IMG/VR virus record: IMGVR_UViG_2529292920_000011
Coordinates: 1 to 12,932 of that record
Source of the DNA: a virus
Taxonomy: Duplodnaviria > Heunggongvirae > Uroviricota > Caudoviricetes
Length of the DNA: 12,932 nucleotides
Direction: 5' to 3' (one strand)
The position numbers and the translations under genes are program-made. Shown piece after piece: positions 1-12,932 of this stretch (positions within the stretch are counted from its first letter, which is position 1; each line of letters starts with the position of its first letter). A model generated the notes under the pieces. That model saw only the letters and a list, made by a program, of their open reading frames with translations, was not told the origin of the DNA and did not search any database.

Positions 1-11
1 GTTTGGGGGAA
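1..11. other. Partial invertase crossover site 1 (right half only; centre dinucleotide lies 1-2 nt upstream of the window)
   Basis: Window opens with GTTTGGGGGAA, the reverse complement of the left half of site 3 (TTCCCCCAAACC) minus one base. It sits at the 5' boundary of cassette A, as sites 2-5 sit at the other cassette boundaries. Confidence 0.5.
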
Positions 12-536
12 GGCTCTGCACTGCCCGTTGGTGTACCTGTTCCGTGGCCCTCAGCCACTCCACCAACGGGCTGGCTGAAATGCAACGGCGCAGCATTTTC
101 TTCTGAAGATTACCCCAAATTGGCACAGGCTTACCCCGCGAACAAATTACCGGATCTACGGGGTGAATTTATCCGTGGCTGGGATGATGGACGTGGCTTG
201 GATGCTGGGCGTGCCTTGCTAAGTCTTCAGGATGACTCTTTTGAAGCGCACAGGCATGAGTCCTTTTTTTATGCGGGTATTTCACGTAATGAGACCCCAT
301 TAAAAAATCTTCCAAGTTCAGACGAGATGCTGACTTTAAGTTCCACAACTAATGCCTTGTCCCCGGACAGTATTGATGCCACCAACTCGTTAATTGGTAA
401 TGACGATTACAACTGTCTTATCGAAGGGAATAAAAATAACAAACGAACAGCGACAGGACTGAGTACCAGTATTGTCGGCACAGCAGAAACACGCCCCCGC
501 AACGTTGCATTCAATTACATCGTAAGAGCTGCATGA
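3..536 (+). CDS. Tail-fibre C-terminal receptor-binding cassette A (tail-collar type), 5'-partial; the constant N-terminal part of the fibre gene must lie upstream of the window
   Basis: Frame is open from the window edge, so the 'M' in the track is an internal TTG (Leu). Conserved N-terminal block GEGSALPVGVPVPWPSATPPTGWLKCNGAAFSSE..LPDLRGEFIRGWDDGRG, an HxH motif (HRHES) and the C-terminal ETRPRNVAFNYIVRAA are shared with the other cassettes. Motif pattern matches phage tail-collar / MdpB-like fibre tips. Confidence 0.8.
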   Translation: MGEGSALPVGVPVPWPSATPPTGWLKCNGAAFSSEDYPKLAQAYPANKLPDLRGEFIRGWDDGRGLDAGRALLSLQDDSFEAHRHESFFYAGISRNETPLKNLPSSDEMLTLSSTTNALSPDSIDATNSLIGNDDYNCLIEGNKNNKRTATGLSTSIVGTAETRPRNVAFNYIVRAA

Positions 537-555
537 AAACGTTGGTTTAGGGGAA
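530..555. other. Crossover site 2 (gix/hix-like, 12+2+12)
   Basis: TGCATGAAAACG-TT-GGTTTAGGGGAA. The AAAAC..GTTT core resembles Gin/Hin sites (AAACC-NN-GGTTT). Overlaps the TGA stop of cassette A and begins the conserved leader of cassette B. Site 4 is its exact reverse complement. Confidence 0.6.
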
Positions 556-576
556 GGCTCTGCACTGCCCGTTGGT

Positions 577-1023
577 GTGCCCGTTCCGTGGCCCTTAGCA
601 ACACCACCAACGGGCTGGCTGAAATGTAACGGTGCAGCATTTTCTTCTGAAATGTACCCCAATCTGGCAAAAGCCTACCCCACCAATAAATTACCGGATT
701 TACGGGGCGAATTTATTCGTGGCTGGGATGATGGGCGAGGAATTGATGCAGCACGCGCTTTATTGAGCATTCAAACCGGGATGTTGGAAAAACACCGCCA
801 TATTGTTGTAGCTAACGATGGATATGACACAAAGGATGAATGGGAGTTGGCCACGATTTTCAAAAAAACATATACACAAGGCAGGGGGCTTGATGCCACA
901 AATACAGGAGGGAGTTTGATTCCATCACCAACGCTTCATTCACGAGGAAGTATTGGTAACACAGGTGGTAGTGAAACCCGCCCCCGCAATATTGCATTTA
1001 ACTATATCGTGAGGGCGGCTTAG
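577..1023 (+). CDS. Tail-fibre C-terminal cassette B (silent alternative cassette; frame is open from 526, through site 2)
   Basis: Same conserved N-terminal block (PVPWPLATPPTGWLKCNGAAFSSEMYP...LRGEFIRGWDDGRG), HxH (HRH) and C-terminal ETRPRNIAFNYIVRAA, with a different middle segment. No promoter or constant region is attached, so it is expressed only after rearrangement. Confidence 0.7.
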   Translation: MPVPWPLATPPTGWLKCNGAAFSSEMYPNLAKAYPTNKLPDLRGEFIRGWDDGRGIDAARALLSIQTGMLEKHRHIVVANDGYDTKDEWELATIFKKTYTQGRGLDATNTGGSLIPSPTLHSRGSIGNTGGSETRPRNIAFNYIVRAA

Positions 1024-1209
1024 TTATATTCAACTGGCTGCTGCCAGTGGTATTTCCGGCAAGTTGATATCTGGTGCCATGTTTATATCCATTGCGTTCA
1101 GCGCGTCTATATAATCCAGCACGGCGTTAAGCCGGGTGGTTTCTGCCTGCGTCAACTTCCGCCGGCCTGCAACTTCAACTGAATCAGACTTATGGAAGCC
1201 ATTGCCGCA

Positions 1210-1641
1210 TCAGCCAGTGACTGGCGCTTGGTTTCTGCCCGCTTCTACTGCGGCACTATGTTGTGCCTCAGTATCTGTCACCCATTTTTCACCATCCCAT
1301 TTATCGTATGGCGTCGACGGGGAGATAGTGGTTGTATTTTTCGGGTAGTCACCTAGCGTCGTGATTTCTTCGGTGTTTCCCGTGTCAGTGTTATAGACGG
1401 TTTCACCACGATGATCTGGCGTATACTCCCATGAATTTAAATTCTCCGAACGGCGGATAGCATAGCCCGCTTTATGTGCGCCCGGGGCATCTAAACAGGA
1501 ATTTGCCGGAATACCGACACCCGCAGCAAGATATTCAGTTGATTCGGAAATATATTCCCGTGTCTCACCATCATAGTTATAAACGACGATGTTTCCTGCC
1601 TGTACGGCAATAAGGTCATCATTTAATATCGCGTTATTCAT
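1210..1641 (-). CDS. Tail-fibre assembly chaperone (Tfa, lambda Tfa / Mu U family), N-terminal 143 codons ending at an in-frame TGA; probable pseudogene whose remnant extends to about 1030
   Basis: Recalled lambda Tfa pattern is matched (VYN.., G.PANS, W...DHRGETVY, Y.KW.G..WV.DTEA). Start ATG overlaps the stop of cassette C (TAATG coupling). Beyond the TGA at 1210-1212 the same frame still encodes a Tfa-like C-terminus (KLTQAETTRLNAVLDYIDALNAMDINMAPDINLPEIP) down to a stop at 1030-1032. Confidence 0.6.
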   Translation of the reverse strand: MNNAILNDDLIAVQAGNIVVYNYDGETREYISESTEYLAAGVGIPANSCLDAPGAHKAGYAIRRSENLNSWEYTPDHRGETVYNTDTGNTEEITTLGDYPKNTTTISPSTPYDKWDGEKWVTDTEAQHSAAVEAGRNQAPVTG

Positions 1642-2099
1642 TATGCGGTTCTCACAATATAATTGAAGGCAATATTGCGTGGGCGGGTTTCATTCCCCTC
1701 TGAGGATTCCGTTCTGTATTGACTGGTAAATCTACCGTTAATTGCACCTTGCCGGACGGCGTTATCTGTCGACAACAGACTATCCCCGCCTTTGTCATTT
1801 GGCACCAGTACCGTGTTATCCCACGCATCCCATGACCGAATATTATGATAATGACTTCCTGTTAACCACCCCTGCATGCTTAAGATGACCCTTCCGGCAT
1901 CCACCCCGCGCCCATCATCCCAGCCACGGATAAATTCACCGCGTAAGTCTGGTAATTTATTGGTGGGGTAAGCCATTGCCAGTCTGGGATACATTTCAGA
2001 AGAAAATGCTGCGCCGTTACATTTCAGCCACCCCGTTGGCGGCGTGGCTGAGGGCCATGGAACAGGTACACCAACGGGCAGTGCAGAGCCTTCCCCCAA
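1641..2099 (-). CDS. Tail-fibre C-terminal cassette C (the only cassette followed by a tfa gene)
   Basis: Conserved leader GEGSALPVGVPVPWPSATPPTGWLKCNGAAFSSEMYP..LRGEFIRGWDDGRG, HxH (HYH), C-terminal ETRPRNIAFNYIVRTA. The 'M' is an internal TTG; the frame opens inside site 3. Confidence 0.75.
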   Translation of the reverse strand: MGEGSALPVGVPVPWPSATPPTGWLKCNGAAFSSEMYPRLAMAYPTNKLPDLRGEFIRGWDDGRGVDAGRVILSMQGWLTGSHYHNIRSWDAWDNTVLVPNDKGGDSLLSTDNAVRQGAINGRFTSQYRTESSEGNETRPRNIAFNYIVRTA

Positions 2100-2116
2100 A
2101 CCAACGTTTTCATGCG
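2091..2116. other. Crossover site 3 (inverted relative to sites 1 and 2)
   Basis: TTCCCCCAAACC-AA-CGTTTTCATGCG. Central AA on the plus strand, against TT in site 2. Lies at the D/C cassette junction and overlaps the stop of cassette D. Confidence 0.6.
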
Positions 2117-2583
2117 GCTCTTACGATGTAATTAAATGCAACGTTGCGAGGGCGAGTTTCTGTACCTACATTTCCACTAATTTCACCAAACCGTTTTACA
2201 TTACGAGAGCTAATGGCTCGTAGTGAGGAAGGCACATTTAAACCGGGTTCGTCTGTTTTAACTATTCCCCCGTCCCCGTATGTAGCCAGTATTCCAGGGT
2301 CTACTCCTTCCCGTGTACTTCCCGCGGCAAGTCCACCCCCGGTCCATAATTCCATATAGTGTGCATGATCCAAAATTGTGTGTGGCTGCCAATTAAGCAG
2401 AGCGCGGCCAGCATCCACCCCGCGCCCATCATCCCAGCCGCGAATAAATTCGCCCCGTAAATCCGGTAATTTATTGGCGGGGTAGGCCTTTGCCAGATTG
2501 GGGTACATTTCAGAAGAAAATGCTGCACCGTTACATTTCAGCCAGCCCGTTGGCGGCGTGGCTGAAGGCCATGGAACGGGCAC
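2110..2583 (-). CDS. Tail-fibre C-terminal cassette D
   Basis: Conserved leader, HxH (HAH), C-terminal ETRPRNVAFNYIVRAA. Its first 63 residues are near-identical to cassette B, matching the inverted-repeat geometry. Confidence 0.75.
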   Translation of the reverse strand: MPVPWPSATPPTGWLKCNGAAFSSEMYPNLAKAYPANKLPDLRGEFIRGWDDGRGVDAGRALLNWQPHTILDHAHYMELWTGGGLAAGSTREGVDPGILATYGDGGIVKTDEPGLNVPSSLRAISSRNVKRFGEISGNVGTETRPRNVAFNYIVRAA

Positions 2584-2604
2584 ACCAACGGGCAGCGCCG
2601 AGCC

Positions 2605-2630
2605 TTCCCCTAAACCAACGTTTTCATGCA
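2605..2630. other. Crossover site 4
   Basis: TTCCCCTAAACC-AA-CGTTTTCATGCA, the exact reverse complement of site 2. Lies at the E/D cassette junction and overlaps the stop of cassette E. Confidence 0.6.
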
Positions 2631-3214
2631 GCTCTTACGATGTAATTGAATGCAACGTTGCGGGGGCGTGTTTCTGCTGTGCCGACAATACTGGTACTCA
2701 GTCCTGTCGCTGTTCGTTTGTTATTTTTATTCCCTTCGATAAGACAGTTGTAATCGTCATTACCAATTAACGAGTTGGTGGCATCAATACTGTCCGGGGA
2801 CAAGGCATTAGTTGTGGAACTTAAAGTCAGCATCTCGTCTGAACTTGGAAGATTTTTTAATGGGGTCTCATTACGTGAAATACCCGCATAAAAAAAGGAC
2901 TCATGCCTGTGCGCTTCAAAAGAGTCATCCTGAAGACTTAGCAAGGCACGCCCAGCATCCAAGCCACGTCCATCATCCCAGCCACGGATAAATTCACCCC
3001 GTAGATCCGGTAATTTGTTCGCGGGGTAAGCCTGTGCCAATTTGGGGTAATCTTCAGAAGAAAATGCTGCGCCGTTGCATTTCAGCCAGCCCGTTGGTGG
3101 AGTGGCTGAGGGCCACGGAACAGGCACACCAACGGGCAGTGCAGAGCCTTCTCCTAAACCAACGTTTTCGTCTTTATCCCTACCTATACCAACTATGTAT
3201 TTTTCACGAAACAA
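2624..3214 (-). CDS. Tail-fibre C-terminal cassette E (inverted duplicate of cassette A; silent here)
   Basis: Residues 20-196 are identical to cassette A. The frame opens only at 3226, immediately after a stop, so no constant fibre N-terminus is attached in this orientation. Confidence 0.75.
   Translation of the reverse strand: MFREKYIVGIGRDKDENVGLGEGSALPVGVPVPWPSATPPTGWLKCNGAAFSSEDYPKLAQAYPANKLPDLRGEFIRGWDDGRGLDAGRALLSLQDDSFEAHRHESFFYAGISRNETPLKNLPSSDEMLTLSSTTNALSPDSIDATNSLIGNDDYNCLIEGNKNNKRTATGLSTSIVGTAETRPRNVAFNYIVRAA
3149..3174. other. Crossover site 5 (outermost site, adjacent to the invertase gene)
   Basis: TTCTCCTAAACC-AA-CGTTTTCGTCTT. The inner half is conserved with sites 3 and 4; the outer half diverges, as expected for a site bordering non-invertible DNA. 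It lies 55 bp upstream of the invertase ATG, as gixR/cixR lie next to gin/cin. Confidence 0.6.
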
Positions 3215-3228
3215 AGAGGATGTTTTTT

Positions 3229-3828
3229 ATGCAAATTGGCTATATTCGTGTGTCAACAAATGACCAGAACACGGATTTACAACGCAATGCACTGAACTGC
3301 GCAGGATGTGAACTGATTTTTGAAGATAAAATCAGCGGAACGAAATCAGCCAGACCGGGATTGAAAAAACTGCTCAGAACGCTATCAGAAGGAGATACGC
3401 TGGTTGTCTGGAAGCTGGACAGACTGGGCAGAAGTATGAAACACCTGATCACGCTTATTGAGGAATTGCGGAAAAAAGGTGTTAATTTCCGTAGTCTGAC
3501 GGACAGCATTGACACATCAACACCCATGGGGCGTTTCTTTTTTCACGTCATGGGGGCTTTAGCCGAAATGGAACGTGAATTAATTGTAGAGCGTACACTG
3601 GCCGGGCTGGCAGCAGCACGCGCACAAGGACGCATTGGCGGACGTCGCCCGAAGTTGACAAAAGAACAACACGAGCAAATAGCGAGGCTGATTAAATACG
3701 GTCATGACAGGAAACAACTGGCGATCATTTACGACATCGGCATATCGACGATTTATCGTTATCACCCTGTAGGCGATATACAGGCTGAAGAAACAACCAG
3801 GCAGACTCAGGAAAATGAAAACCGCTAA
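3229..3828 (+). CDS. Site-specific DNA invertase, serine recombinase of the Gin/Pin/Hin/Cin family
   Basis: N-terminus MQIGYIRVSTNDQNTDLQRNAL with the catalytic Ser in the YIRVSTNDQ motif; central VVWKLDRLGRSMKHLI and GRFFFHVMGALAEMERELI; C-terminal HTH (GISTIYRY). AGAGGA Shine-Dalgarno 8 nt upstream of the ATG at 3229. The track ORF 3034-3828 is an upstream in-frame extension running through site 5 and is unlikely to be real. Confidence 0.93.
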   Translation: MQIGYIRVSTNDQNTDLQRNALNCAGCELIFEDKISGTKSARPGLKKLLRTLSEGDTLVVWKLDRLGRSMKHLITLIEELRKKGVNFRSLTDSIDTSTPMGRFFFHVMGALAEMERELIVERTLAGLAAARAQGRIGGRRPKLTKEQHEQIARLIKYGHDRKQLAIIYDIGISTIYRYHPVGDIQAEETTRQTQENENR

Positions 3829-3847
3829 TCTGACCATTAGCGGTTTT
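3818..3847. terminator. Bidirectional intrinsic terminator between the convergent invertase and gpU genes
   Basis: Perfect 12-bp stem AAAACCGCTAAT / ATTAGCGGTTTT with a 6-nt loop (CTGACC). The invertase TAA stop lies inside the stem. T-run on the plus strand; TTTTCATTTTCC follows on the minus strand. Confidence 0.6.
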
Positions 3848-3854
3848 GCGTTAA

Positions 3855-4349
3855 TCAAAACAGCCCTTTAACGGAGCTGGCCGCGCTGTTAAGAGATGAT
3901 GTCACCTTGTCTTTGAAGCCGGACAGCATATCACTGAACGATGAGGATTGCAGGCGCTCCCGCAAATCCTCATCACAGCGTTCAAGAGTCAGTGAAAATT
4001 CTATCTTTTTCGCCTTACCGTAGCGATCAAACTCGGAGCGGGTCGTATTCGTTTCAGTCAGTACATACATGCCGTAAATCTGCCCGACACCATCAATCAG
4101 AGGCCAGGGGCGTCCTGTATATGCCTGCGTGGTCAGCAGCGAAAGCGACACTTCGCCACCTGTAATTTCAGGATAAAGCACGCCAGAAAGCACGATGCGA
4201 TCATCACCTGCACCGATATACTGCCAGCTTGCTGAGCGGTTTACGCGCTCATTTTTCACATGCCGCCAGCTTTTGTTTTGCTGTAACTGCTGATGCGGCA
4301 ATGTGCGCAGCTCAAAAACAAACATGCCGTAGATCATCATCATGGCCAT
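3855..4349 (-). CDS. Tail protein gpU-like (P2 U family)
   Basis: 164-aa ORF directly downstream of the tape measure gene on the same strand, the usual gpU position. Contains WRHVKNERV and LSGVLYPEITGG segments that I recall from gpU proteins. True start may be an internal Met. Confidence 0.75.
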   Translation of the reverse strand: MAMMMIYGMFVFELRTLPHQQLQQNKSWRHVKNERVNRSASWQYIGAGDDRIVLSGVLYPEITGGEVSLSLLTTQAYTGRPWPLIDGVGQIYGMYVLTETNTTRSEFDRYGKAKKIEFSLTLERCDEDLRERLQSSSFSDMLSGFKDKVTSSLNSAASSVKGLF

Positions 4350-4355
4350 GACTCC

Positions 4356-7199
4356 TCAATCTTTATCGTAAAAACTGCCACGCCCGGCACGGGCGCGCCG
4401 TTCCATCTCTGCCCTGACCATTTCGCCGACCAGTTTCGCCAGTTCGCGGGGATTCTGTGTAACAACGTTATGCAGATGAACATGAATTTCACCACCAAAT
4501 CCGGAGGCAACAGGCTCCCGGTTACGGGAAGTTGCAGGAACTGATGCCACTGGCGATCGTATGGCCTCCGCCACCGGGCGGGAGCTGGCCGCAACAACAG
4601 GGACCAGCGCCGGAGGCAGCGGAGCCGGAACCACGGGTGTGATATTAATTGCGGGGGCAGGCTTACTGACCTGCGCAATCTTCCGCTCCTGCCACTCCCC
4701 ACGAACAGCAAGTGCGCGGGGCAGGTTCTTAAAGACAATATCGCCGGGGCCAATGCGTTTTTTCGTCTCATCAACCAGCTTACCTGTGTTATCAGCAATT
4801 TTGCTGAGTCTGCGTAGCGTGCCGGTATTGCTGTCTGTGAGCGGTTTGTTGTCTTTGGGGTTATCGCCTCCGGTGCCATTGCCATTTTCCACAGGCTTCG
4901 GCGGATTGATTTTCGCAATGTCTCCCTGAAACAGAGCAACCTTGTCCTGAAGAATGGCCGCACGCTGTGCGTCTTCGATTTTCTTTCTCGCCCTTTCCGC
5001 TTCATCCGGAAGCACACCGAGTTTTTCAAGTATCCACGCCAGCGTATCCAGCAACATTTTTGCAGGCGTCAGAACAAGCTGTAGCGCGCCACCAAGAACG
5101 TTACCGAATATCTCGCCAGCACTGGTACATTTATCCAGCGTTTCCTTGCTGGACTCCATCGGTGACAACAGCGATTTAAACCAGTTAAACACCTGGCTGA
5201 TCCCGCTTCCGATTGCGTCAAAAACAGGGCCAAACCGTTCAAAGGTTTCGCGCAACGGGGTCAGCCTTTCCATAATCCCGCTGAACACCCCGGCAAAAAA
5301 TGCCCTGATGGGATCCCAGTATTTCCAGATGAGAACGGCAGCTCCGGCAAGCGCAGCCACGATAAGACCGACCGGACTGAACAACGCCCCGATAGCGCCT
5401 CCCAGTAAAGAAACGGACCACGTCACCATTCCCCATAACGCAGGCAACACTCTGACAACATTCATTGACCGGGTAAGAATGTCGAAACCAAGACGCAGGG
5501 TGGCCAGCTTCCCGTAAAGCACCCCAATAACCAGTGACAACGAGCCAATCGTTGCAGTCATTGCCAGCAACGCACCGCCTGCTATCAGTAGCTGGCGCGT
5601 CAGTACCGGATGGGCCTGCGCCAGCGAGGTGATTTTTTCAAGCACCCGCGTGAACCACTGCGTGACAGAACGCAGCGGACCGTCAACCAGATCACTGATG
5701 CGAATACGAAGACCTTCCCATGCGCTGTCGAGATTTTTCAGGTCCCCATCAAGATTATCGGCCATTACTTTTGCGACGCGATCGGCCTCTCCCCTTGCCC
5801 CCTGCAATTCTCTGGTCAGTTTTTGCAGCTCTCCTGAACCAGCCGCCGCAACAAGCGTCTGCAAACCAACGAACGCCTCTTCTCCGGCGATGTCCTTGAA
5901 GAAGGAAACCTGGTCCACCTGTCCGTATTTTTGTGTCGCCTTATAGAGATCAAGCAGCACATCCTCCATCGGGCGCATTTTGCCTCTGGCGTCAGCAACT
6001 GACACTCCCAGCTCTTTCAGCGCATCAGCCGCAGCTTTTGGCGGTGATGCAAGGCGGGACAGACTTGCGCGCATGGCCGTACCAGCATCGCTTCCGCGAA
6101 GACCATTATTGGCAAGCATCCCGGCCATGGCCGCCGCTTCTTCAAGACTGATACCAAGTTTTGCGGCAACCGGACCGGTATACTTCATGGTTTCGCCCAG
6201 CGCGCGTAAATCAGTATTGGTCCGGGTGAATGCTGCTGTCAGCGTATCGCCAACCCGGTCCATTTGATCGGCTGTCAGGTTGAACTGTGTGAGGATATTG
6301 GAGCCTATATCAGCCGTCTCGCCGAGTTCGACGCCACCTGCCAGCGCCATATTAAGAACACCGGGCAATGCGGCCTGAATGGCCTGCGGAGTAAAACCAG
6401 CCATTGCCAGAAAGCTCTGCCCACTGGCGGCATCACTCGCAGTAAACTGTGTTTCAGAGCCAAGTTTTAACGCCTGCTCACGCAGCGCCTTAAACTGCGG
6501 GCTGTTTTTGTCGATTCGCGTCAGTGCCTGAACGCGGGACATCTCTTTGCCGAACCCGATCGCAGGCTGCAAAAAACGCCCGGCAGCATAGCCGCCCGCC
6601 GCTGCCGCACCAATTGCCAGCGCACCACCTGTTTTCAGTTTTCCCGCAGTTTCCTGCGCGCGCGAATACCGCTCACGCGCCCTCGTTACACGCGCAAGCG
6701 CCTGCCGTTCGCGTTCAAGCTGGTTGTTGTACTGTTCGGTGCGTCTGATGGCCTGCTGAATGGTGTTATCGCTGCCTGTCAGTGAAATGCCGTGGCGTTT
6801 CAGCTCTCCGCCAAGCTCCCGCATTTTCTGAATTTCCCGTGTGCGCGATTCATTCAGGCGTTCAAGCCGGGTGCTTAACTGCTGCATCAGCTTTTGTTGT
6901 TTTTCGCTGAGCACTGTACCCGTGCGTTGTAACTGATTAAGGGCGTTAAGCTGGCGTCGTGCTTTCACGATGCCCGCATCCGCTTTACTGACAGCGTCAC
7001 GGGCGCGCTCAAATGATCGCGCCTGACGCTCGAGATTTTTGATCGCCCCCTGCGTTCGCTGGATGGAGTCACCAAACTGCCCCATCAGGCGGCGGGCATT
7101 TTCGGCAGGCCGGGTCAGCCTGTCAACGGCGCTGAAAGCGACCCGGATATCAAGAGTCTTCATTGTCTGCATTCCCGCTGCGAAGTGCCGCCCGCTCAC
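4356..7199 (-). CDS. Tail tape measure protein (P2 gpT-like)
   Basis: Roughly 940-aa ORF with a coiled-coil N-terminal third, a Gly/Ala-rich central hydrophobic stretch (GALAIGAAAAGGYAAG) and a long helical/hydrophobic C-terminal half. Sits between the E/E' and U genes. True start is probably ATG 7172 (MQTMKTLDIR) or 7163, overlapping the E' stop. Confidence 0.9.
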   Translation of the reverse strand: MSGRHFAAGMQTMKTLDIRVAFSAVDRLTRPAENARRLMGQFGDSIQRTQGAIKNLERQARSFERARDAVSKADAGIVKARRQLNALNQLQRTGTVLSEKQQKLMQQLSTRLERLNESRTREIQKMRELGGELKRHGISLTGSDNTIQQAIRRTEQYNNQLERERQALARVTRARERYSRAQETAGKLKTGGALAIGAAAAGGYAAGRFLQPAIGFGKEMSRVQALTRIDKNSPQFKALREQALKLGSETQFTASDAASGQSFLAMAGFTPQAIQAALPGVLNMALAGGVELGETADIGSNILTQFNLTADQMDRVGDTLTAAFTRTNTDLRALGETMKYTGPVAAKLGISLEEAAAMAGMLANNGLRGSDAGTAMRASLSRLASPPKAAADALKELGVSVADARGKMRPMEDVLLDLYKATQKYGQVDQVSFFKDIAGEEAFVGLQTLVAAAGSGELQKLTRELQGARGEADRVAKVMADNLDGDLKNLDSAWEGLRIRISDLVDGPLRSVTQWFTRVLEKITSLAQAHPVLTRQLLIAGGALLAMTATIGSLSLVIGVLYGKLATLRLGFDILTRSMNVVRVLPALWGMVTWSVSLLGGAIGALFSPVGLIVAALAGAAVLIWKYWDPIRAFFAGVFSGIMERLTPLRETFERFGPVFDAIGSGISQVFNWFKSLLSPMESSKETLDKCTSAGEIFGNVLGGALQLVLTPAKMLLDTLAWILEKLGVLPDEAERARKKIEDAQRAAILQDKVALFQGDIAKINPPKPVENGNGTGGDNPKDNKPLTDSNTGTLRRLSKIADNTGKLVDETKKRIGPGDIVFKNLPRALAVRGEWQERKIAQVSKPAPAINITPVVPAPLPPALVPVVAASSRPVAEAIRSPVASVPATSRNREPVASGFGGEIHVHLHNVVTQNPRELAKLVGEMVRAEMERRARAGRGSFYDKD

Positions 7200-7416
7200 G
7201 CCAGCTAACCACTTCGCCGGGCGTCATCATGAAGATTTCGGCGGGCGACCAGTTAAAAATGGCGGCAATATCCGCCACCAGATCTTCGATGTGCTCAAAG
7301 CACACCAGGGTGATTACGCTGCCGTCTCCTGCACGCTCTTCGCGCCAGAGTCTGGCTCGCTCATAAAATTTACAGCCACAGCGCACAGCTGAATAAAATC
7401 GCGTGACGACATTTTT
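7150..7416 (-). CDS. E' extension frame (-1 relative to gpE); expressed only as an E+E' fusion by programmed -1 frameshift
   Basis: The -1 frame is open from 7416 to a stop at 7150-7152 and overlaps the 3' end of gpE (7314-7416). Slippery candidates lie in the overlap. Same arrangement as P2 E/E' and lambda G/GT. Confidence 0.6.
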   Translation of the reverse strand, partial: KNVVTRFYSAVRCGCKFYERARLWREERAGDGSVITLVCFEHIEDLVADIAAIFNWSPAEIFMMTPGEVVSWRERAALRSGNADNEDS

Positions 7417-7688
7417 TTAATCATCACTTCATCCAGTCGTGGCGAGGTCACGCGAGGCAACAGCGTAAACATGGTATCCGCTTTCAGATTCAGCACATCA
7501 GACAGCGACAGACCACGCAGGGATCCAGCCTGCTCAATAGCCCCGGTGATCTCCACATACGTGATTTTTTCGCCACCACGCTCAATTTGTCGGGTCAGTT
7601 TTACGCCACGTTCGACAGCCATATCCTCACCTGCCGTCACATCATCCGCCACGGTGTTATTCCGGGTTTCAGTATCGATGTCTTTCAT
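7314..7688 (-). CDS. Tail assembly chaperone gpE-like
   Basis: 124-aa ORF between the tube and tape measure genes. AGGAGA Shine-Dalgarno 6 nt upstream of the ATG at 7688. A -1 frame (E') overlaps its 3' end. Confidence 0.75.
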   Translation of the reverse strand: MKDIDTETRNNTVADDVTAGEDMAVERGVKLTRQIERGGEKITYVEITGAIEQAGSLRGLSLSDVLNLKADTMFTLLPRVTSPRLDEVMIKKMSSRDFIQLCAVAVNFMSEPDSGAKSVQETAA

Positions 7689-7743
7689 CAGTTGTCTCCT
7701 TTTCAGTCAGAGGCGACGCACTGCGCCGCCTGCATATTACTTA

Positions 7744-8256
7744 TCAGCCAAGCCCAAGCGCGGAACGGATACGGTCAGGCACAATGTCCTTGCCGTCCTT
7801 CCGGTAGATGTGGTTCAACAGGTCGATTTCCCACAGCGGGCGATCGTTAACGCTCAGCTTGTAGTAGGTGTTTTTGACAGCGTAAGTGTGTGATGTGGCT
7901 TCGCCCTGTTTGGCTTCCCCCATATCAATTTCCGTCACACGCCCGCGCATCTCGATTTCATACAGATCGCTTTCTGCATCGGTGTAGTATTCACCCGCAA
8001 AACGCAGCAGCGTGCCGTCAATCGTGCCGCCATATTTAAGGAACAGCGCACGAACAGCTCCCCCCATGACAAAACTCGCATCAAGCGCGGAGTCGTCCAG
8101 ACCGAGATCAATACTTACCGCCCCCATCATGCCACCCCCCCGGTAGCTGTCGGTTTTGCGCGTCAGTTTGGGCGGCGTGACGGATGTCACTTTACCCACT
8201 TCGTTTTCACCATCCACAAACAACGTAAAAAAGCGAAGATGTTTTGGTACAGCCAT
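7744..8256 (-). CDS. Tail tube protein (P2 FII-like)
   Basis: 170-aa ORF immediately downstream of the sheath gene, with a 1-nt stop/start overlap (TGATG). Size and position are typical of the FII tube family. Confidence 0.88.
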   Translation of the reverse strand: MAVPKHLRFFTLFVDGENEVGKVTSVTPPKLTRKTDSYRGGGMMGAVSIDLGLDDSALDASFVMGGAVRALFLKYGGTIDGTLLRFAGEYYTDAESDLYEIEMRGRVTEIDMGEAKQGEATSHTYAVKNTYYKLSVNDRPLWEIDLLNHIYRKDGKDIVPDRIRSALGLG

Positions 8257-9440
8257 CAGGCACCTCCCAGCACCGCAAATGCGGGACCAAAGAATTCATC
8301 AGTAAACGTCTGGTAAAGCTCCATGTCTTCCAGTGGCGGAACGGGCGTATATTTGTAGCGAATACGCACACGTCCCTGACGTAAATTCGTGGTGCCGTTA
8401 TCCACCACGTCATACCAGCACTCCGCGCCAATCAGTTTCCCGGCAGTAACCAGCGAATCCAGTTTTGCCCTGATGGCACTGATAACATCCTTCACGTTCG
8501 CAGGCGTCAGTGGACTGTCGATGGTTTCAAATTGCGCTTCCGCAATTGAATCAGCCAGCACCTGTGCGGCTCGGGTATACACCTCAAAGATGTAGGCGTT
8601 CGTTTCCGGTGTGCGGTTGCCCCAGAAGCGGAATCCGTTGCGACGAATAATGGTCGTGATTTCTTTGTTATTGAGGCTGTTGGCATCACTGTCTTCGGCC
8701 TGCAACGACCAGAACACATGCCTGGACATTCCCAGCACATTTTTAACCGGAACGTTGGACAGCGATTTGTGCCAGCCCTGCTCATGGTCAATGTACGCAC
8801 GAAGGCCGCACGCATAAGCAGGCGCGGGGAACGTTTCGTTTTTTCCACTTTTCGGGTTGTAGGCGATGAAGTCCGGCCATAAGAGCATCACCTCACGTTC
8901 GTTGAATTTCTGGCGGTAGGTAATCGCCTCAGCCATCGTGTTACAACCATGACATGTGGCATACACAAACGCGCGCAGTTTACCCGCAATCACGCACAGG
9001 GATTTCGTTACCGCCTCCGTGTCCAGCTCCGGCGCGGCCAGAATACGCGGACGGTATCCGATGCTTTCATCCTGCTCTGCAACAAGCAGCGCATACATCC
9101 CCGTATAGCTGCCGTCATCCTCAGAACCACCGATAACCAGTTGATCCTGCGTCTTACCGTCTTCTTCTTTGTGTTCAGCCACGCGAACGACGATCACCTT
9201 TGTGCTCACCTGGTCTGCGATGGCCTTAAGCGCACGATAAAGCGTCCCCGTTGTCCCGCATTTTCCCAGCACGTCATTGACGCGGGTCAGCAGTGTGGGC
9301 TTGTTCAGCGGGAACAGCTTCGCGTCCGCATCATCCGCCGTTGCCACGATACCGATAACGCTGGAATCAACATCGTTAATCGCTGTTACCAGGTCGGTAT
9401 TTTCCGTAACACGGGCACCATGAAAACGAGTTTCACTCAT
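8256..9440 (-). CDS. Contractile tail sheath protein (P2 FI-like)
   Basis: 394-aa ORF (MSETRFHGARVTENTDLVTAINDVDSSVIG...) of the size and position expected for a P2-type sheath, first gene of the sheath-tube-E-T-U block. Confidence 0.9.
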   Translation of the reverse strand: MSETRFHGARVTENTDLVTAINDVDSSVIGIVATADDADAKLFPLNKPTLLTRVNDVLGKCGTTGTLYRALKAIADQVSTKVIVVRVAEHKEEDGKTQDQLVIGGSEDDGSYTGMYALLVAEQDESIGYRPRILAAPELDTEAVTKSLCVIAGKLRAFVYATCHGCNTMAEAITYRQKFNEREVMLLWPDFIAYNPKSGKNETFPAPAYACGLRAYIDHEQGWHKSLSNVPVKNVLGMSRHVFWSLQAEDSDANSLNNKEITTIIRRNGFRFWGNRTPETNAYIFEVYTRAAQVLADSIAEAQFETIDSPLTPANVKDVISAIRAKLDSLVTAGKLIGAECWYDVVDNGTTNLRQGRVRIRYKYTPVPPLEDMELYQTFTDEFFGPAFAVLGGA

Positions 9441-9597
9441 AGCTTCAGCCCCTTGTATCCGTTAAATGATTCGGCAACAATCATCACCCACCACGCGCGT
9501 AATCTCACCCCTGCGCCGTTCTCCCGCCACGGCGACAACAAAAAGCAGTCCCCCCCTCCGCACGCACATGCGACCATGCCGCACAGGGAGGGAACAG

Positions 9598-10338
9598 ATG
9601 ACCGACACCACCATGCAATTGCTCAGTCAGGGCACAGACCCCGTAAAAATGCCGGATTTTGATATTCTCGCGGAGGGGAAAAGGCTGTCCGGCGTGGCAG
9701 AGCGCCTGATGAGTCTGTCACTGACCGACAACCGGGGATTTGAAGCAGACCAGCTCACCATCACGCTGGATGATGCGGATGGTCAGTTGCAGCTACCGCC
9801 ACGGGGCGCGCGTCTGACGGTTCTCATTGGCTGGAAAGGCGAACCGCTGACAGAAAAAGGTTCTTACATTGTTGATGAAATCGCACACGAAGGACCGCCG
9901 GACAGGCTGACGGTTTCAGCCAGAAGCGCAGATTTTCGGGATGAATTTAACGTTAAACGTGAGGTGTCCTGGCATGATGTGACCGTTGAGCGTGTGGTAT
10001 CCGCCATCGCTCATCGGTACGGCCTGAAACCGCAAATCAGCGAAATGCTGATGGATATCGAAATCGACCACGCCGACCAGACCGAAGAAAGCGACATGTC
10101 CTTCCTTACGCGCATGGCGGAAATGCTGGGCGCAATCACCACGGTAAAAAGCGGTAATCTGTTATTCATCATGCCAGGCGGTGGCGTGAACGCACAGGGC
10201 CAGCCGTTGCCATCGTTCGCCATCACACGCAGCAGCGGCGATCGCCATCAGTTCCGCATTGCTGACCGCGAGGCGTATACGGGGGTACGCGCCTACTGGC
10301 TTGATCTTAATTACGGGAAAAAGAAAAAGTCAGCGTGA
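9598..10338 (+). CDS. gpD-like tail protein (P2 late control gene D family), N-terminal 246 codons, ended prematurely by a frame change
   Basis: ATG at 9598 preceded by GGGAGGG (the track start 9466 is an upstream extension). Sequence ...LTVLIGWKGEPL...LTVSARSADFRDEF...SFLTRMAEMLGA...YTGVRAYWLDLNYGKKKKSA* stops inside an A-rich tract. Confidence 0.75.
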   Translation: MTDTTMQLLSQGTDPVKMPDFDILAEGKRLSGVAERLMSLSLTDNRGFEADQLTITLDDADGQLQLPPRGARLTVLIGWKGEPLTEKGSYIVDEIAHEGPPDRLTVSARSADFRDEFNVKREVSWHDVTVERVVSAIAHRYGLKPQISEMLMDIEIDHADQTEESDMSFLTRMAEMLGAITTVKSGNLLFIMPGGGVNAQGQPLPSFAITRSSGDRHQFRIADREAYTGVRAYWLDLNYGKKKKSA

Positions 10339-10706
10339 AACGCCGCAAACCGCCCAAGCTCAAAAAGGAGAAAAGCAGCAGCCGTGAAGGTGATTATATG
10401 GAAGGCGCGGAAGGCAATGTTTTTGTGTTACGCAAGACTTATCAGAACGAGCAGGCAGCAAGACGCGCAGCGGCGGCAAAGTGGCAGCAGCTACAACGCG
10501 GAGCCGCATCATTCTCCATCACGCTGGCGCGTGGACGTGCAGAACTCTACCCCGAAATGCATGGCACGGTAACAGGATTTAAAAGCGAGATTGATAATCA
10601 GGACTGGATTATTGCAAAAGCCGAGCACACCATTGATAACAGCGGCTTTACCACACAGCTTGAGCTTGAAGCAAAAATCCCGGAATGGATAGCAGAAACA
10701 GAATAA
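10335..10706 (+). CDS. gpD-like tail protein, C-terminal part in the -1 frame (frame open from 10311)
   Basis: ...AAAKWQQLQRGAASFSITLARGRAELYPEMHGTVTGFKSEID...GFTTQLELEAKIPEWIAETE is the continuation of a single gpD. Together the two parts give about 370 aa, the normal gpD size. Confidence 0.7.
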   Translation: MKRRKPPKLKKEKSSSREGDYMEGAEGNVFVLRKTYQNEQAARRAAAAKWQQLQRGAASFSITLARGRAELYPEMHGTVTGFKSEIDNQDWIIAKAEHTIDNSGFTTQLELEAKIPEWIAETE

Positions 10707-10834
10707 ATCTCTTAAAAATATTATTTTTGAGATGTGCTTCTACACTGACAGTAAGAACAAAAGATAATGTATCAGCCCACTAGATGTCAGAGGTTGGGGC
10801 ATCAACCAGATGCTAACAATAATACGGATGTTTT

Positions 10835-10864
10835 TCCCACATGACAGAGGAAGTCAAGTATAAT
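10835..10864 (+). promoter_or_regulatory. Candidate sigma70 promoter for the AT-rich island genes
   Basis: -35 ATGACA (10835-10840), 18-bp spacer, -10 TATAAT (10859-10864), about 90 bp upstream of the ATG at 10955. Found by eye only. Confidence 0.3.
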
Positions 10865-10954
10865 CTTCACAGTCCCTCCCGTCCAAGGGAATATGACTCA
10901 ATAGTAAAAGTTCCAGTTTAGTTAGTAGACCCACACTTTATAGAAGAGTAAATC

Positions 10955-11902
10955 ATGATTGGACAATTTTTAAGTGCAACAGAGATTTTAGCAAAGAACT
11001 ATGTTCGTAATAAAATGGTTAAAAATCCATTTTATTCGAATTTAAAATGGAATTTTGTTGAAAAAAACATCATAAGATTAACATCCTCACCGGTTAAATC
11101 AGTACTTTGCATATCAGCTTTTTCATTTGTACTACTTTATGTTGGATATTTAAACGAATTATTTATAAAAAAGAATCTTTTACATTATTTCCCGTTTAGG
11201 CATTCATTAACCGAATGGCAAACAACCATTTTAAGTGGCCAATTGACAATTATTGGTATTGTATACCCCCTTGTTATAGGTTTAGTAAGTGTCTTATTCC
11301 AAAAAAAAGCAGATAGAAAAATAGCCCAAACTGCTTATCAGCGTTACTCAGGATTCATGCTTGCTGGACTCAGCGGGCTTTTCTTATCAGGATTTATACT
11401 TCTCAGTGTACTAATTAAAACTGTCTTTGGAAGTTATCTTTATGGTATAGCCTGTCTAATCAGCATATTATGGCTTTTGATAAACATAGTTCTTTCTATT
11501 TGGTTCTTTATCGTGAGCCTTGAAATTCTTGATGATGTAAAACGGCAAATAATTATAAAGCGATACATTGCCTTCGAAATAGTAATGCCCCATATTTGTA
11601 ACAAAATCTCAGCCAATCTTAGGTTATACCCTATCTATCAAAAACATAACTATTCAAATTTAGAAATCAAGCAAGCCGATTACAAAGGAGAATACATATC
11701 TGTGGCTAGCAGTTATTCTAAGGAAGATGAGTTAAGTTTATATCACCGTCCTTTTCAACTTATTCTTAATCTTATTAATTACCAACTAAAAAAAAGAATC
11801 ATTTTGCGTCATTTGTCATTGGTGATAATCGTGCAAAAGAAACAGAATCCACGGGTAAGATACTTTTTAGCGTTAAAAATATCAAACCAGACAGCTTATT
11901 AA
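10955..11902 (+). CDS. Multi-pass membrane protein of unknown function (4-5 predicted TM helices), first part of a probable larger gene
   Basis: 315-codon open frame in about 30% GC DNA, where stops are frequent. Hydrophobic segments: VLCISAFSFVLLYVGYL, LTIIGIVYPLVIGLVSVLF, GFMLAGLSGLFLSGFILLSVLI, YLYGIACLISILWLLINIVLSIWFFIVSL. No family recognised. Confidence 0.65.
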   Translation: MIGQFLSATEILAKNYVRNKMVKNPFYSNLKWNFVEKNIIRLTSSPVKSVLCISAFSFVLLYVGYLNELFIKKNLLHYFPFRHSLTEWQTTILSGQLTIIGIVYPLVIGLVSVLFQKKADRKIAQTAYQRYSGFMLAGLSGLFLSGFILLSVLIKTVFGSYLYGIACLISILWLLINIVLSIWFFIVSLEILDDVKRQIIIKRYIAFEIVMPHICNKISANLRLYPIYQKHNYSNLEIKQADYKGEYISVASSYSKEDELSLYHRPFQLILNLINYQLKKRIILRHLSLVIIVQKKQNPRVRYFLALKISNQTAY

Positions 11903-12932
11903 TAAAAATACTTAAGCAATGTTTTTATAGGGCTCCGATTAAAGGAGGAGATTTTTCCGTAAGTCTTACAATGCAGGCTATAACAGCAGATACGTATATG
12001 TATCTGCGGGATTCTGATCTCTTTAGTTTTGACGATGCTATCTCTGCATTAATTAATAACTTTAATAATCTCTGCGATTTGTATTTTTTTCAAGATGACA
12101 ATACCAACAATAATTTCTTACTGATCACTACAGAATTATTTGAACGGAGTTTTCAATATGAGTTTTCAGATGAAGTTTATAAAATATCAAATAATTCCAT
12201 GGATAAAATTAATCTTTCTGAAAGATTTTTTGAATTATGTCTTTGGAGCGGAGTGCGTATTCTTAATAATAGAAAACATCTTATCAGCAATGAACTTTGT
12301 ATCTATATGGGAATTACTCGTTCACAATGGTCAATATTAACAGAATGGTTCCGAAACAACCAATCACTCTTAAATGCCTCGCTTCGTTCACGTTATAATC
12401 GTATATTAAGAACCTATGCCACTGTTTGGGAGCAATATCAAGAAAGCATCAACTTTCGTTTCTGCAATACAGAGAATTCAGATTTATTTGAATTATTTTG
12501 CAAAACGCAACTACAAGAACTTCCATCGATCATTATTGATGCAACACAGACTCGCGATCCTTCTACTATTGATACAGCCGTCGATCTTATTAACCGATGG
12601 CAGCACTCAATGAATATTGACAGCCATTCGGTAGAAAAATACAGTTACCAAGGCCAGCTTTTTAACCCGGGTTTTTTCATCTCCAAAAAACTAAACTTCA
12701 ATTCAGACAGAGAGTGGTTCAATATTGCCATCATAAATGCGTTGACTGACATGCGTATATGCACATGTCTTTATCTGACATCAAGAATCAATACTTCTGA
12801 CAAACTAATGACACATTACATTAAACTTATTTTAGAGGGTAAACTTATTGACCAAACCGGTGGATATGAAACTCCCACTGAAGAAATTGATAATGCAAGC
12901 CAACTAATCAAGATATTAGTTAGAATCTGCCT
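11779..12932 (+). CDS. Long ORF of unknown function, 3'-partial (runs off the window); probable continuation of the membrane-protein gene in the -1 frame
   Basis: I translated this frame by hand; it has no stop from 11779 to the window end (about 384 codons) in AT-rich DNA. First ATG is at 11971; AGGAGG at 11944-11949 is too far from it to be a convincing RBS. It is not in the ORF track, presumably because it has no stop in the window. Confidence 0.6.

Follow-up and report, generated by a model that had tools for sequence, protein, structure and literature searches.

The closest described relatives of the locus are Escherichia phage P88 (Xuanwuvirus P88, NC_026014), Xuanwuvirus P884B11 and Escherichia phage 500465-2, together with the Citrobacter rodentium phage PhiSM (Shae_phiSM, OR565851). 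P88 is mitomycin-inducible and plaque-forming, yields myovirus particles and has a burst size of about 65 (PMC5285337), while PhiSM, which has a different host, is released spontaneously, forms plaques and lysogenises, and is an active temperate phage (PMC6456863). In the canonical P2-type operon, as represented by P2, 186, Fels-2 and Cartapus, the invertase or Z/fun slot is followed by P_F-FI-FII-E-E'-T-U-D-ogr, with all genes co-directional and with an overlap of U and D that suggests translational coupling. The window analysed here, i.e. the whole stretch of 12,932 nucleotides forming positions 1 to 12,932 of IMG/VR record IMGVR_UViG_2529292920_000011, belongs to a lineage with the same eight genes, and this lineage shares with the canonical operon the E/E' frameshift, an Ogr/Delta gene after gpD and an Ogr-type box 80–90 nt upstream of the FI start, whereas FI to U are inverted, a ribosome-binding site and a promoter-like element belong to gpD itself, and protein identity to the canonical counterparts is only 42–54%.

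The three phages of the P88 group exhibit the same gene order and orientation as the window from the invertase through gpD, and PhiSM has the same architecture at 93.5% identity; each of the four aligns with window positions 3000–10800 as one collinear BLAST piece at 92–94% identity, which for the P88 group extends over 96% of that interval, with the FI, FII, U and D proteins 97–99% identical. The nucleotide identity to P88 refers to the 7.8 kb compared within 12.9 kb of prophage and is not a genome-wide figure; the ICTV genus criterion is about 70% identity over the whole genome. The window differs from P88 in containing several alternative fibre cassettes instead of one pair, and in its broken gpD and a 3-kb low-GC insert before ogr, where P88 has an intact gpD directly followed by ogr. 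PhiSM carries a different cargo (a TagO-like gene) downstream of gpD, and its GenBank product names are off by one gene in the tail region.

Layout of the tail block

The ORF listing and the PHROG and Pfam scans of the window placed the tail genes from FI to U on the minus strand at 3855–9440. The tail protein gpU occupies 3855–4349 (phrog_76, 5e-75; Pfam Phage_P2_GpU, 5.5e-39), followed by the tape measure gpT at 4356–7199, as bounded by its longest ORF (phrog_28, 2e-219), whose P88 homologue is 94.6% identical and whose true start probably lies slightly downstream of 7199. The gpE gene at 7314–7688 is overlapped by the −1 frame ORF of E' at 7150–7386, the pair matching phrog_103 and phrog_1756 (the latter for E'), and reading-frame analysis located a slippery heptamer, A_AAT_TTT, at 7365–7371 in the zero frame of E, so that E and E' are read from the sequence as a programmed −1 frameshift pair of tail chaperones. 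The tail tube protein FII lies at 7744–8256 (phrog_55, 1e-58) and the tail sheath FI at 8256–9440 (phrog_23, 8e-124); phrog_55 is labelled head closure, yet FII here is the counterpart of the P2 FII tube protein, and the RefSeq name of its homologue is major tail tube protein. On the plus strand, the baseplate hub gpD spans 9598–10706, where phrog_52 and phrog_12925 match two ORF halves. The P2-family (Peduoviridae) set of tail homologues is complete, with PHROG and Pfam matches for each of FI, FII, E, E', T, U and D, whereas the family trait of a single co-directional FI-to-D operon behind one P_F is absent, FI to U being on the minus and D on the plus strand, which represents a clade-specific departure from the P2-family tail module.

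An earlier note on this DNA had set the sheath-to-U block on the minus strand against gpD on the plus strand from 9598 across a 157-bp spacer, and the gap at 9441–9597 is indeed 157 bp. It had also described the fibre gene and the invertase as converging on gpU; the gap at 3829–3854 is 26 bp as it said, with the invertase ending at 3828, but the invertase alone converges, the fibre cassettes lying further left (1–3214). This junction harbors a perfect 12-bp hairpin at 3818–3847, AAAACCGCTAAT-N6-ATTAGCGGTTTT, which is flanked on either side by A/T runs, extends over the stop codon of the invertase gene, matched in the terminator scan and is also present in close relatives. Folding yields −16.9 kcal/mol (z −4.3) for one strand and −15.6 kcal/mol (z −3.2) for the other, and none of 200 shuffles folded as well. 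Placed between the convergent genes of the invertase and gpU, the hairpin is a candidate for a bidirectional terminator that would end both the invertase transcript and the FI-U transcript. The Rfam scan of the whole window gave no match.

Fibre cassettes and the invertible region

The gene abutting the tail block on the left encodes a DNA invertase of the Gin/Cin/Hin/Pin kind, a serine recombinase on the plus strand at 3229–3828 (phrog_125, 8e-99; Pfam Resolvase, 7e-52, and HTH_7), which is listed as an ORF at 3034–3828, with the start at 3229 chosen by comparison with P88, and shares 80–90% identity with the Fels-2 invertase and with that of a P2-like phage. Four Din-type crossover sites with the pattern TTCYCCNAAACCAACGTTTTC were observed at 535–555 (−), 2091–2111 (+), 2605–2625 (+) and 3149–3169 (+), against zero matches expected by chance and none elsewhere in the window. 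These sites bound tail-fibre C-terminal cassettes, which match tail-fibre PHROGs, and a 759-nt inverted repeat, 97% complementary, lies in the same region. The true invertible region is the set of fibre cassettes at 535–3169, to the left of the tail block, and the invertase and crossover sites plausibly switch the fibre cassettes at 1–3214.

The Din-family invertible segments (Mu G, P1 C, e14 P and p15B Min) likewise combine a serine invertase with 26-bp-type crossover sites, which here adjoin the tail block, and it could be supposed that the block itself is a programmed invertible segment caught in one state, flipped by the adjoining Din invertase or by another recombinase, particularly as an active-looking invertase gene abuts it and the four crossover sites lie just to its left. 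Against this, no crossover-like site within 3 mismatches of the consensus was found at either block junction (3829–3854 and 9441–9597), and no inverted repeat bridges the two; the short inverted repeats that the earlier note proposed to look for at both junctions were sought and were not found. The other state occurs in none of 5,426 complete E. coli genomes, in which the two constructed co-directional junctions gave half-matches only and none of full length, and a flipped FI operon would read into gpD without the canonical U/D overlap. Programmed flipping is accordingly judged very improbable, and the 5.6-kb tail block, which unlike the Din-family segments lacks flanking crossover sites and occurs in one orientation only in nature, is not a Din-type invertible segment.

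Conservation and origin of the gene order

The order of the P88-like lineage, invertase (+) | U T E' E FII FI (−) | D (+) ogr (+), is present here, with ogr assigned through the E. coli M21816 locus. The same order was observed in 1,102 of the 5,426 complete E. coli genomes (1,104 E. coli records), counted where at least 80% of window 3000–10800 was found in one place; in 80 of 80 IMG/VR loci; in the genomes of Reginaelenavirus and Reipivirus; and, as U− T− E− FII− FI− | D+ Ogr+, in all genome contig loci that keep their upstream context (about 40 of 47, from about 20 Enterobacterales genera). The synteny comparison recommended by the earlier note returned an identical order in P88, PhiSM, the E. 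coli records and every diverged relative examined, and the agreement of the viable phages P88 and PhiSM with the window is the outcome that the note itself had named as refuting its favoured reading. Of the alternatives the note had offered, an unusual native architecture proved to be the correct reading, as the order is fixed in the P88-like group, and a mis-oriented contig join was excluded by the same shared order. The block orientation is ordinary, neither a recent flip nor an assembly error, because it is the fixed working order of the common P88/Xuanwuvirus group. A search of the accessible literature gave no published description of the FI-U inversion.

An assembly artefact, i.e. a mis-oriented join at 3829–3854 and 9441–9597, might be suspected from the single-base homopolymer indels at 10323 and 11787, which suggest an error-prone read technology, but more than 1,100 independent complete genomes, as well as phage genomes, carry the same junctions without interruption, and the chimeric alternative junctions are without any full-length match, so that its probability is close to nil. 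The first of these indels is the break in gpD, which is split into ORFs at 9466–10338 and 10335–10706 by the loss of one nucleotide from a run of A (A6 to A5, near 10323) in comparison with the gpD of P88 and of M21816; the intact homologue has 369 aa and matches Pfam Phage_GPD. The second is an A9-to-A8 deletion at about 11787, which breaks the cargo gene relative to M21816. The gpD deletion is unrelated to the orientation of the block, and this prophage may be defective if the frameshift in this copy is real.

A recent in-place inversion of about 5.6 kb in this genome, leaving gpD stranded, would explain why the block is reversed relative to P2-type phages that also bear a fibre invertase, and the frameshifted gpD might seem to accompany it. 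However, the identical order is shared by inducible phages, by the 1,104 E. coli records and by relatives whose gpD is as little as 65% identical; the junctions hold a conserved terminator-like hairpin and conserved promoter elements; and a genome that is 99.9% identical lacks the gpD frameshift, which is an indel in a homopolymer. A recent event carries hardly any probability and was rejected on the conserved synteny. As for the in-place inversion favoured by the earlier note, FI to U are indeed inverted relative to P2, Fels-2 and other outgroups, but this is not peculiar to the present sequence, the same order being found in P88, PhiSM and the E. coli records.

The note's statement that P2 relatives are co-directional holds in the seven genera examined, where Fels-2, Peduovirus magyaro, Elveevirus, Kapieceevirus, Citexvirus, Baylorvirus and Tigrvirus all show co-directional genes with U and D overlapping. 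In the phage collection the distribution of gpD identity is bimodal, with 42–54% for these outgroups and at least 65% inside the clade. As the seven outgroup genera keep FI to D co-directional, the inversion is real but ancient, and it defines a clade including Xuanwuvirus, Reginaelenavirus and Reipivirus. In the proposed history, a single inversion reaching from the FI promoter to the stop codon of gpU would have taken place, in the ancestor shared by the clade, within an originally co-directional FI-FII-E-E'-T-U-D-ogr operon, and the inverted arrangement would then have become fixed and fully functional. Comparison of the N-terminus of gpD and the C-terminus of gpU, made to locate the breakpoints, revealed no readable scar, both ends being variable in every lineage and the intergenic DNA too diverged. 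Since the breakpoints cannot be mapped and P2-like phages are mosaic, acquisition of a foreign FI-U module in reverse keeps some probability, though a low one, as against an inversion in situ; the identity to Fels-2 and P2-like homologues is similar within the block (FI 46–48%, FII 42–45%, U 46%) and outside it (J 50–55%, I 53–58%, D 49–54%), and this like divergence fits a single shared history. The window is thus very probably an ordinary P88-like P2-family prophage, in whose clade ancestor one inversion, from the FI promoter to the gpU stop, became fixed and functional, with the spacer between FI and gpD as a putative bidirectional late control region. For members of the P88-like clade, which is carried by roughly one complete E. 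coli genome in five, a departure from P2 synteny is not by itself evidence of rearrangement or misassembly.

Predicted control region between FI and gpD

The 157-bp FI|D spacer (9441–9597) was aligned with its relatives as 107 distinct spacers with a median identity of 40% to the window, and no consensus sigma-70 promoter was found in it by the promoter and terminator scan, in keeping with the weak −35 of Ogr/Delta-dependent late promoters, in which the dyad lies upstream. The elements predicted from conservation and geometry are a leftward −10, GATGAT, at 9485 to 9480 (−); an Ogr-type box, TCT-N12-ACA, at 9520–9537, followed by a conserved ACAAA; and a rightward extended −10 on the plus strand, with TG at 9569–9570 and GACCAT at 9572–9577. 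A ribosome-binding site for gpD, GGGAGGG, is located at 9586–9592 (+). The N12 spacing of the box is conserved in 107 of 107 spacers and the half-sites T(C/G)T...ACA in 104, the exact TGT half-site appearing in 36 and TCT in 68 relatives and in the window itself. The gap from box to hexamer is 34 nt leftward in 101 and rightward in 98 of the 107, whereas leader lengths vary. The box and each candidate −10 hexamer are 46 nt apart, centre to centre, which would place the box at about −55.5 from the predicted start on either side; its distance from the FI ATG is 88.5 nt, as compared with 81.5 nt for the exact TGT-N12-ACA box of Fels-2 P_F.

The Ogr boxes of P2, from the work of the Christie and Calendar groups, are reportedly centred at about −55 from the transcription start, and the Ogr of the present lineage is a Pfam Ogr_Delta zinc-finger protein. 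TGT-N12-ACA is the consensus of the four P2 late promoters, and in phage Smp131 one shared TGT-N12-ACA site has been proposed for P and O (PMC3931495). The P_P and P_O promoters of P2-like phages are back-to-back late promoters in an intergenic region of about 155 bp, resembling FI|D here, except that the P|O divergence dates back to the ancestor of the whole family and the FI|D divergence is specific to the clade of the window. In one 25.7-kb prophage P|O and FI|D are the only intergenic places with the extended motif. In three genera the P|O region of this lineage shows the FI|D arrangement of hexamer, 34 nt, box, 34–35 nt and TGn plus hexamer. Diverged P|O sequences were taken from three Klebsiella phage genomes, the gpO scan of IMG/VR having returned uninformative relatives with an identity of 99% or more. 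In the P2-like phage magyaro P|O displayed no clear layout, and for that reason no claim is made on P2 itself.

From this conservation we infer that the FI|D spacer acts as a bidirectional late promoter, serving FI-U leftward and D-ogr rightward. A single dyad-symmetric Ogr-type box, T(G/C)T-N12-ACA, centred at 9528.5, would precede each of two back-to-back promoters by about 55 nt, their transcription starts being predicted near 9473 (−) and near 9584 (+). With the box shared at this distance from both promoters, a joint switch-on is proposed, in which Ogr would turn on FI-FII-E-T-U to the left and D-(cargo)-ogr to the right at the same time; the co-regulation lost with the inversion would thereby be regained, and late transcription would still read through into ogr, as it does from P_F in P2. 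The earlier note had held that gpD is uncoupled from the sheath promoter, and it is true that gpD is no longer co-transcribed with the sheath gene, but it is not orphaned, as a conserved promoter-like element and its own ribosome-binding site precede it.

The two sides could instead be regulated separately within a native order, the box serving P_F only, as in P2, and gpD-ogr being read from a constitutive or differently controlled promoter. With its TGn and a hexamer in which A2 and T6 are conserved, the rightward extended −10 could dispense with an activator, and ogr carries its own conserved −10-like TAGAAT. Nevertheless, the rightward hexamer stays at its fixed 34 nt from the box across diverged sequences, mirroring the left side and P|O, which is hard to explain if the box were irrelevant to it, and gpD is a structural late protein; separate regulation is therefore considered unlikely, though a serious alternative. 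Beyond the joint switch-on of FI|D, a broader proposal from the sequence comparisons, on which confidence is evenly balanced, is that two mirror-symmetric bidirectional regions, P|O and FI|D, may control the whole late regulon of the clade, each with one dyad-symmetric Ogr box about 55 nt from back-to-back promoters. The ancient inversion would then have given rise to a second copy of the P|O design instead of breaking the regulation, with one bound activator firing both FI-U and D-ogr and with a cargo-insertion hotspot left inside the D-ogr transcript. If the joint switch-on holds, the conserved symmetric spacer would be a clean natural example of an inversion-split operon re-coupled through a palindromic activator site, and it offers precise coordinates for predicted Ogr-dependent promoters in this lineage.

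Downstream of gpD, the composition profile and the M21816 annotation delimit a low-GC (about 31%) cargo on the plus strand between gpD and ogr, at 10707–12932. It had no PHROG, Pfam or PADLOC match and comprises two-thirds, from the 5' end, of a gene whose product in M21816 has 1,039 aa, running off the end of the window; ogr lies beyond that end, and in the M21816 locus, which is 99.9% identical, it comes after the same cargo gene. The gap between gpD and ogr is a hotspot for cargo, occupied here by this uncharacterised gene.

Tail gene order in the window and in active phages

ORF listing and family scans placed a serine DNA invertase on the plus strand (~3229–3828, its start set by comparison with P88), followed on the minus strand by gpU (3855–4349), the tape measure T (4356–7199), the E' (7150–7386) and E (7314–7688) chaperones, which share a slippery heptamer A_AAT_TTT at 7365–7371, the FII tube (7744–8256) and the FI sheath (8256–9440), with gpD starting at 9598 on the plus strand. 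The gene map of the earlier note, a minus-strand block between plus-strand invertase and gpD, was thereby confirmed, as were its two spacers, which measure exactly 26 bp between invertase and gpU (3829–3854) and exactly 157 bp between FI and gpD (9441–9597). A terminator scan and folding detected a hairpin with a perfect 12-bp stem and A and T runs on its flanks (3818–3847), where invertase and gpU converge. It folds at −16.9 and −15.6 kcal/mol on the two strands, more stably than every shuffled sequence, is kept in close relatives, and plausibly functions as a bidirectional terminator.

Positions 3000–10800 gave a single collinear match (92–94% identity, 96% coverage) to each of P88, P884B11, 500465-2 and Citrobacter phage Shae_phiSM (PhiSM), all of the genus Xuanwuvirus, whose annotations exhibit the same order and strands as the window. 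P88 is induced by mitomycin C, forms plaques and myovirus particles and has a measured burst size (PMC5285337), while PhiSM is released spontaneously, forms plaques and lysogenises K-12 (PMC6456863). The earlier note had taken an in-place inversion as the simplest explanation for this DNA and had proposed a synteny comparison with related phages; that comparison finds the same order in active, plaque-forming phages, the very outcome that the note had set as counting against the inversion, and the order is no anomaly. The gene order is real but ordinary: public, annotated genomes of ICTV-classified phages with experimentally shown activity already contain it. A search of the available literature found no paper commenting on the FI–U/gpD arrangement. 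The locus belongs with the P2-family tail modules and works like them, departing only from the feature of a single co-directional operon, a departure common to the whole named group of phages and not peculiar to the window. In the Shae_phiSM record (OR565851, 11024–13475) the sheath is mislabelled as 'late control gene D protein' and gpD as 'ogr/Delta-like zinc finger', and in RefSeq P88 (NC_026014, 13494–13751) the ogr after gpD is unannotated (tblastn match, 95% identity).

Of the 5,426 complete E. coli genomes searched, 1,102 hold 80% or more of positions 3000–10800 at one site in collinear form. Two hypothetical co-directional junctions were built (invertase end with FI promoter, gpU end with gpD start), and the same genomes yielded 0 matches across either one, with ~1,400–1,500 genomes matching one or other half. 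The invertase crossover site TTCYCCNAAACCAACGTTTTC is present in four copies, all inside 535–3169; a pattern search of the window found no similar site at either block junction, and the search for short inverted repeats at both junctions, also proposed earlier, found none bridging them. Because the junction searches were empty and crossover sites and inverted repeats are absent at the junctions, the block is not a switching segment, Din-type or other, and the mis-oriented contig join offered as an alternative was rejected, as none of the 5,426 genomes spans the alternative junctions. Left of the invertase, positions 1–3214 hold tail-fibre C-terminal cassettes on both strands (plus, 3–536 and 577–1023; minus, 1641–2099, 2110–2583 and 2624–3214), the only full assembly-protein gene of that region (1210–1641, minus) and a 759-nt inverted repeat, 97% complementary, alongside the four crossover sites. 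This fibre-switching region is unusually elaborate, with five cassettes for one full assembly-protein gene, whereas P88 has one alternative fibre pair only.

Distribution and origin of the inverted block

A gpD scan of one genome per bacterial species returned 47 loci from ~20 Enterobacterales genera, including Salmonella, Edwardsiella, Serratia, Erwinia, Pantoea, Klebsiella, Kosakonia, Brenneria and Symbiopectobacterium, and every locus keeping upstream context exhibits minus-strand U, T, E, FII and FI followed by plus-strand D and Ogr, at gpD identities from 65% to 98%. The same FI–D divergence was observed in 80 of 80 IMG/VR loci found by gpD profile and in complete Klebsiella phages of Reginaelenavirus and Reipivirus. 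The gpD identities found in the phage collection form a bimodal distribution, 48 records at 60% or above and 369 lower than that; every phage inspected from the second group (Fels-2, Peduovirus magyaro, Elveevirus Cartapus, a Kapieceevirus, Citexvirus Dobby, Mannheimia Baylorvirus and Tigrvirus phiX216) has a co-directional FI-FII-E-E'-T-U-D with U and D overlapping, so that the co-directional late operon ascribed to P2 relatives in the earlier note holds in all seven. As these phages are all co-directional, that order is ancestral, and the FI–U inversion arose once, as a derived character of one deep clade. Divergence from canonical P2-type phages is about equal for proteins inside and outside the block, which favours in situ inversion over import of a foreign module; import, to whose side belongs the fact that the block breakpoints are no longer readable, is the less favoured origin.

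In a 32-kb record of the same clade (CP052639.1, 'Klebsiella pneumoniae plasmid unnamed') the sheath gene is in two parts, the N-terminal part diverging from gpD as usual and the C-terminal part lying with tube-to-U on the plus strand after D–ogr, which reflects an additional rearrangement that broke within FI, or else a misassembly. The Vagococcus sp. WN89Y contig and the Planococcaceae MAG UBA3378, both filed under Firmicutes, carry the enterobacterial prophage with gpD 98–99% identical to the E. coli type, most likely by contamination or mis-binning in those assemblies.

Putative late promoters in the FI–D and P–O regions

An alignment of 107 distinct FI–D spacers (median identity to the window 40%) retains three islands. 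The strongest, G.T.T-N12-ACAACAAA, or T(G/C)T-N12-ACA, at 9520–9537, has the N12 spacing in 107/107 spacers and its half-sites in 104/107, and fits the P2 Ogr-dependent late promoter consensus TGT-N12-ACA (PMC3931495). The left island is a hexamer GAnnAT read leftward (9485 to 9480), exactly 34 nt from the box in 101/107, and the right island is TGn plus a hexamer with conserved A2 and T6 (TG 9569–9570, GACCAT 9572–9577), the hexamer lying 34 nt from the box in 98 spacers; leader lengths outside these elements vary (left 31–40 nt, right 10–26 nt). Each hexamer is centred 46 nt from the middle of the box, which would place the dyad at about −55 relative to both of two predicted back-to-back promoters. 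P2 Ogr boxes occupy a position of about −55. The left half is probably the old FI promoter (P_F), since 88.5 nt separate box and FI start, close to the 81.5 nt between the exact box of Fels-2 P_F and its FI start. The right half would provide gpD with its own promoter-like element and Shine-Dalgarno sequence (GGGAGGG, 9586–9592, plus strand), replacing the U/D overlap destroyed by the inversion.

One predicted Ogr box would fire FI–U and D–ogr together, and this proposed shared-box bidirectional late promoter is the only part of the locus that is modestly new. In the main rival reading, P_F alone would depend on the box, and gpD would be read from an extended −10 promoter of its own; the fixed spacing between box and rightward hexamer makes this less likely. 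The layout proposed for the shared box recurs in the intergenic region between genes P and O of the lineage (hexamer, 34 nt, box with ACAA, 34–35 nt, TGn-hexamer; three genera), and in one 25.7-kb prophage the extended motif is intergenic only at P–O and FI–D. Pfam assigns the lineage Ogr to Ogr_Delta. At the S–V position P2 carries a P_V promoter of its own upstream of V, whereas the S–V junction of the E. coli M21816 prophage locus (8350–8560) contains no Ogr-type box and leaves just 11 nt between S and V, so the lineage may use only the two predicted bidirectional regions, P–O and FI–D. In related loci the median gpD-to-ogr distance is 50 nt and no terminator is obvious between the two genes; a −10-like TAGAAT is kept ~30 nt upstream of ogr in the D–ogr gaps of 81 distinct relatives (24700–24770 in the M21816 locus).

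The gpD frameshift and cargo before ogr

The gpD gene is split in the window by the loss of a single A (A6 to A5) in AAAAAGAAAAAAG at ~10323, relative to P88 and to E. coli M21816, whose locus is 99.9% identical to the window. The only other indel in 3.5 kb against M21816, A9 to A8 at ~11787, breaks the cargo gene as the first breaks gpD. Both resemble sequencing errors in homopolymers, in a pattern typical of long reads, or slippage in the very recent past; real pseudogenisation is possible, and both are unrelated to block orientation. The composition profile drops to ~31% GC right of gpD, where the cargo gene (GC ~31%; window 10955–12932, full gene 21516–24635 in the M21816 locus) lies between gpD and ogr. 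Its 1,039-aa product is predicted to have membrane segments at the N-terminus and has no match in PHROG, Pfam or PADLOC, and the gene may be an uncharacterised defence or accessory gene. Because 11 of 77 related loci carry inserts of 0.7–4 kb there, the D–ogr gap is a cargo hotspot, and the TAGAAT element retained downstream of the insert in the M21816 locus suggests an insertion point for cargo after the gpD stop codon and ahead of the ogr promoter.
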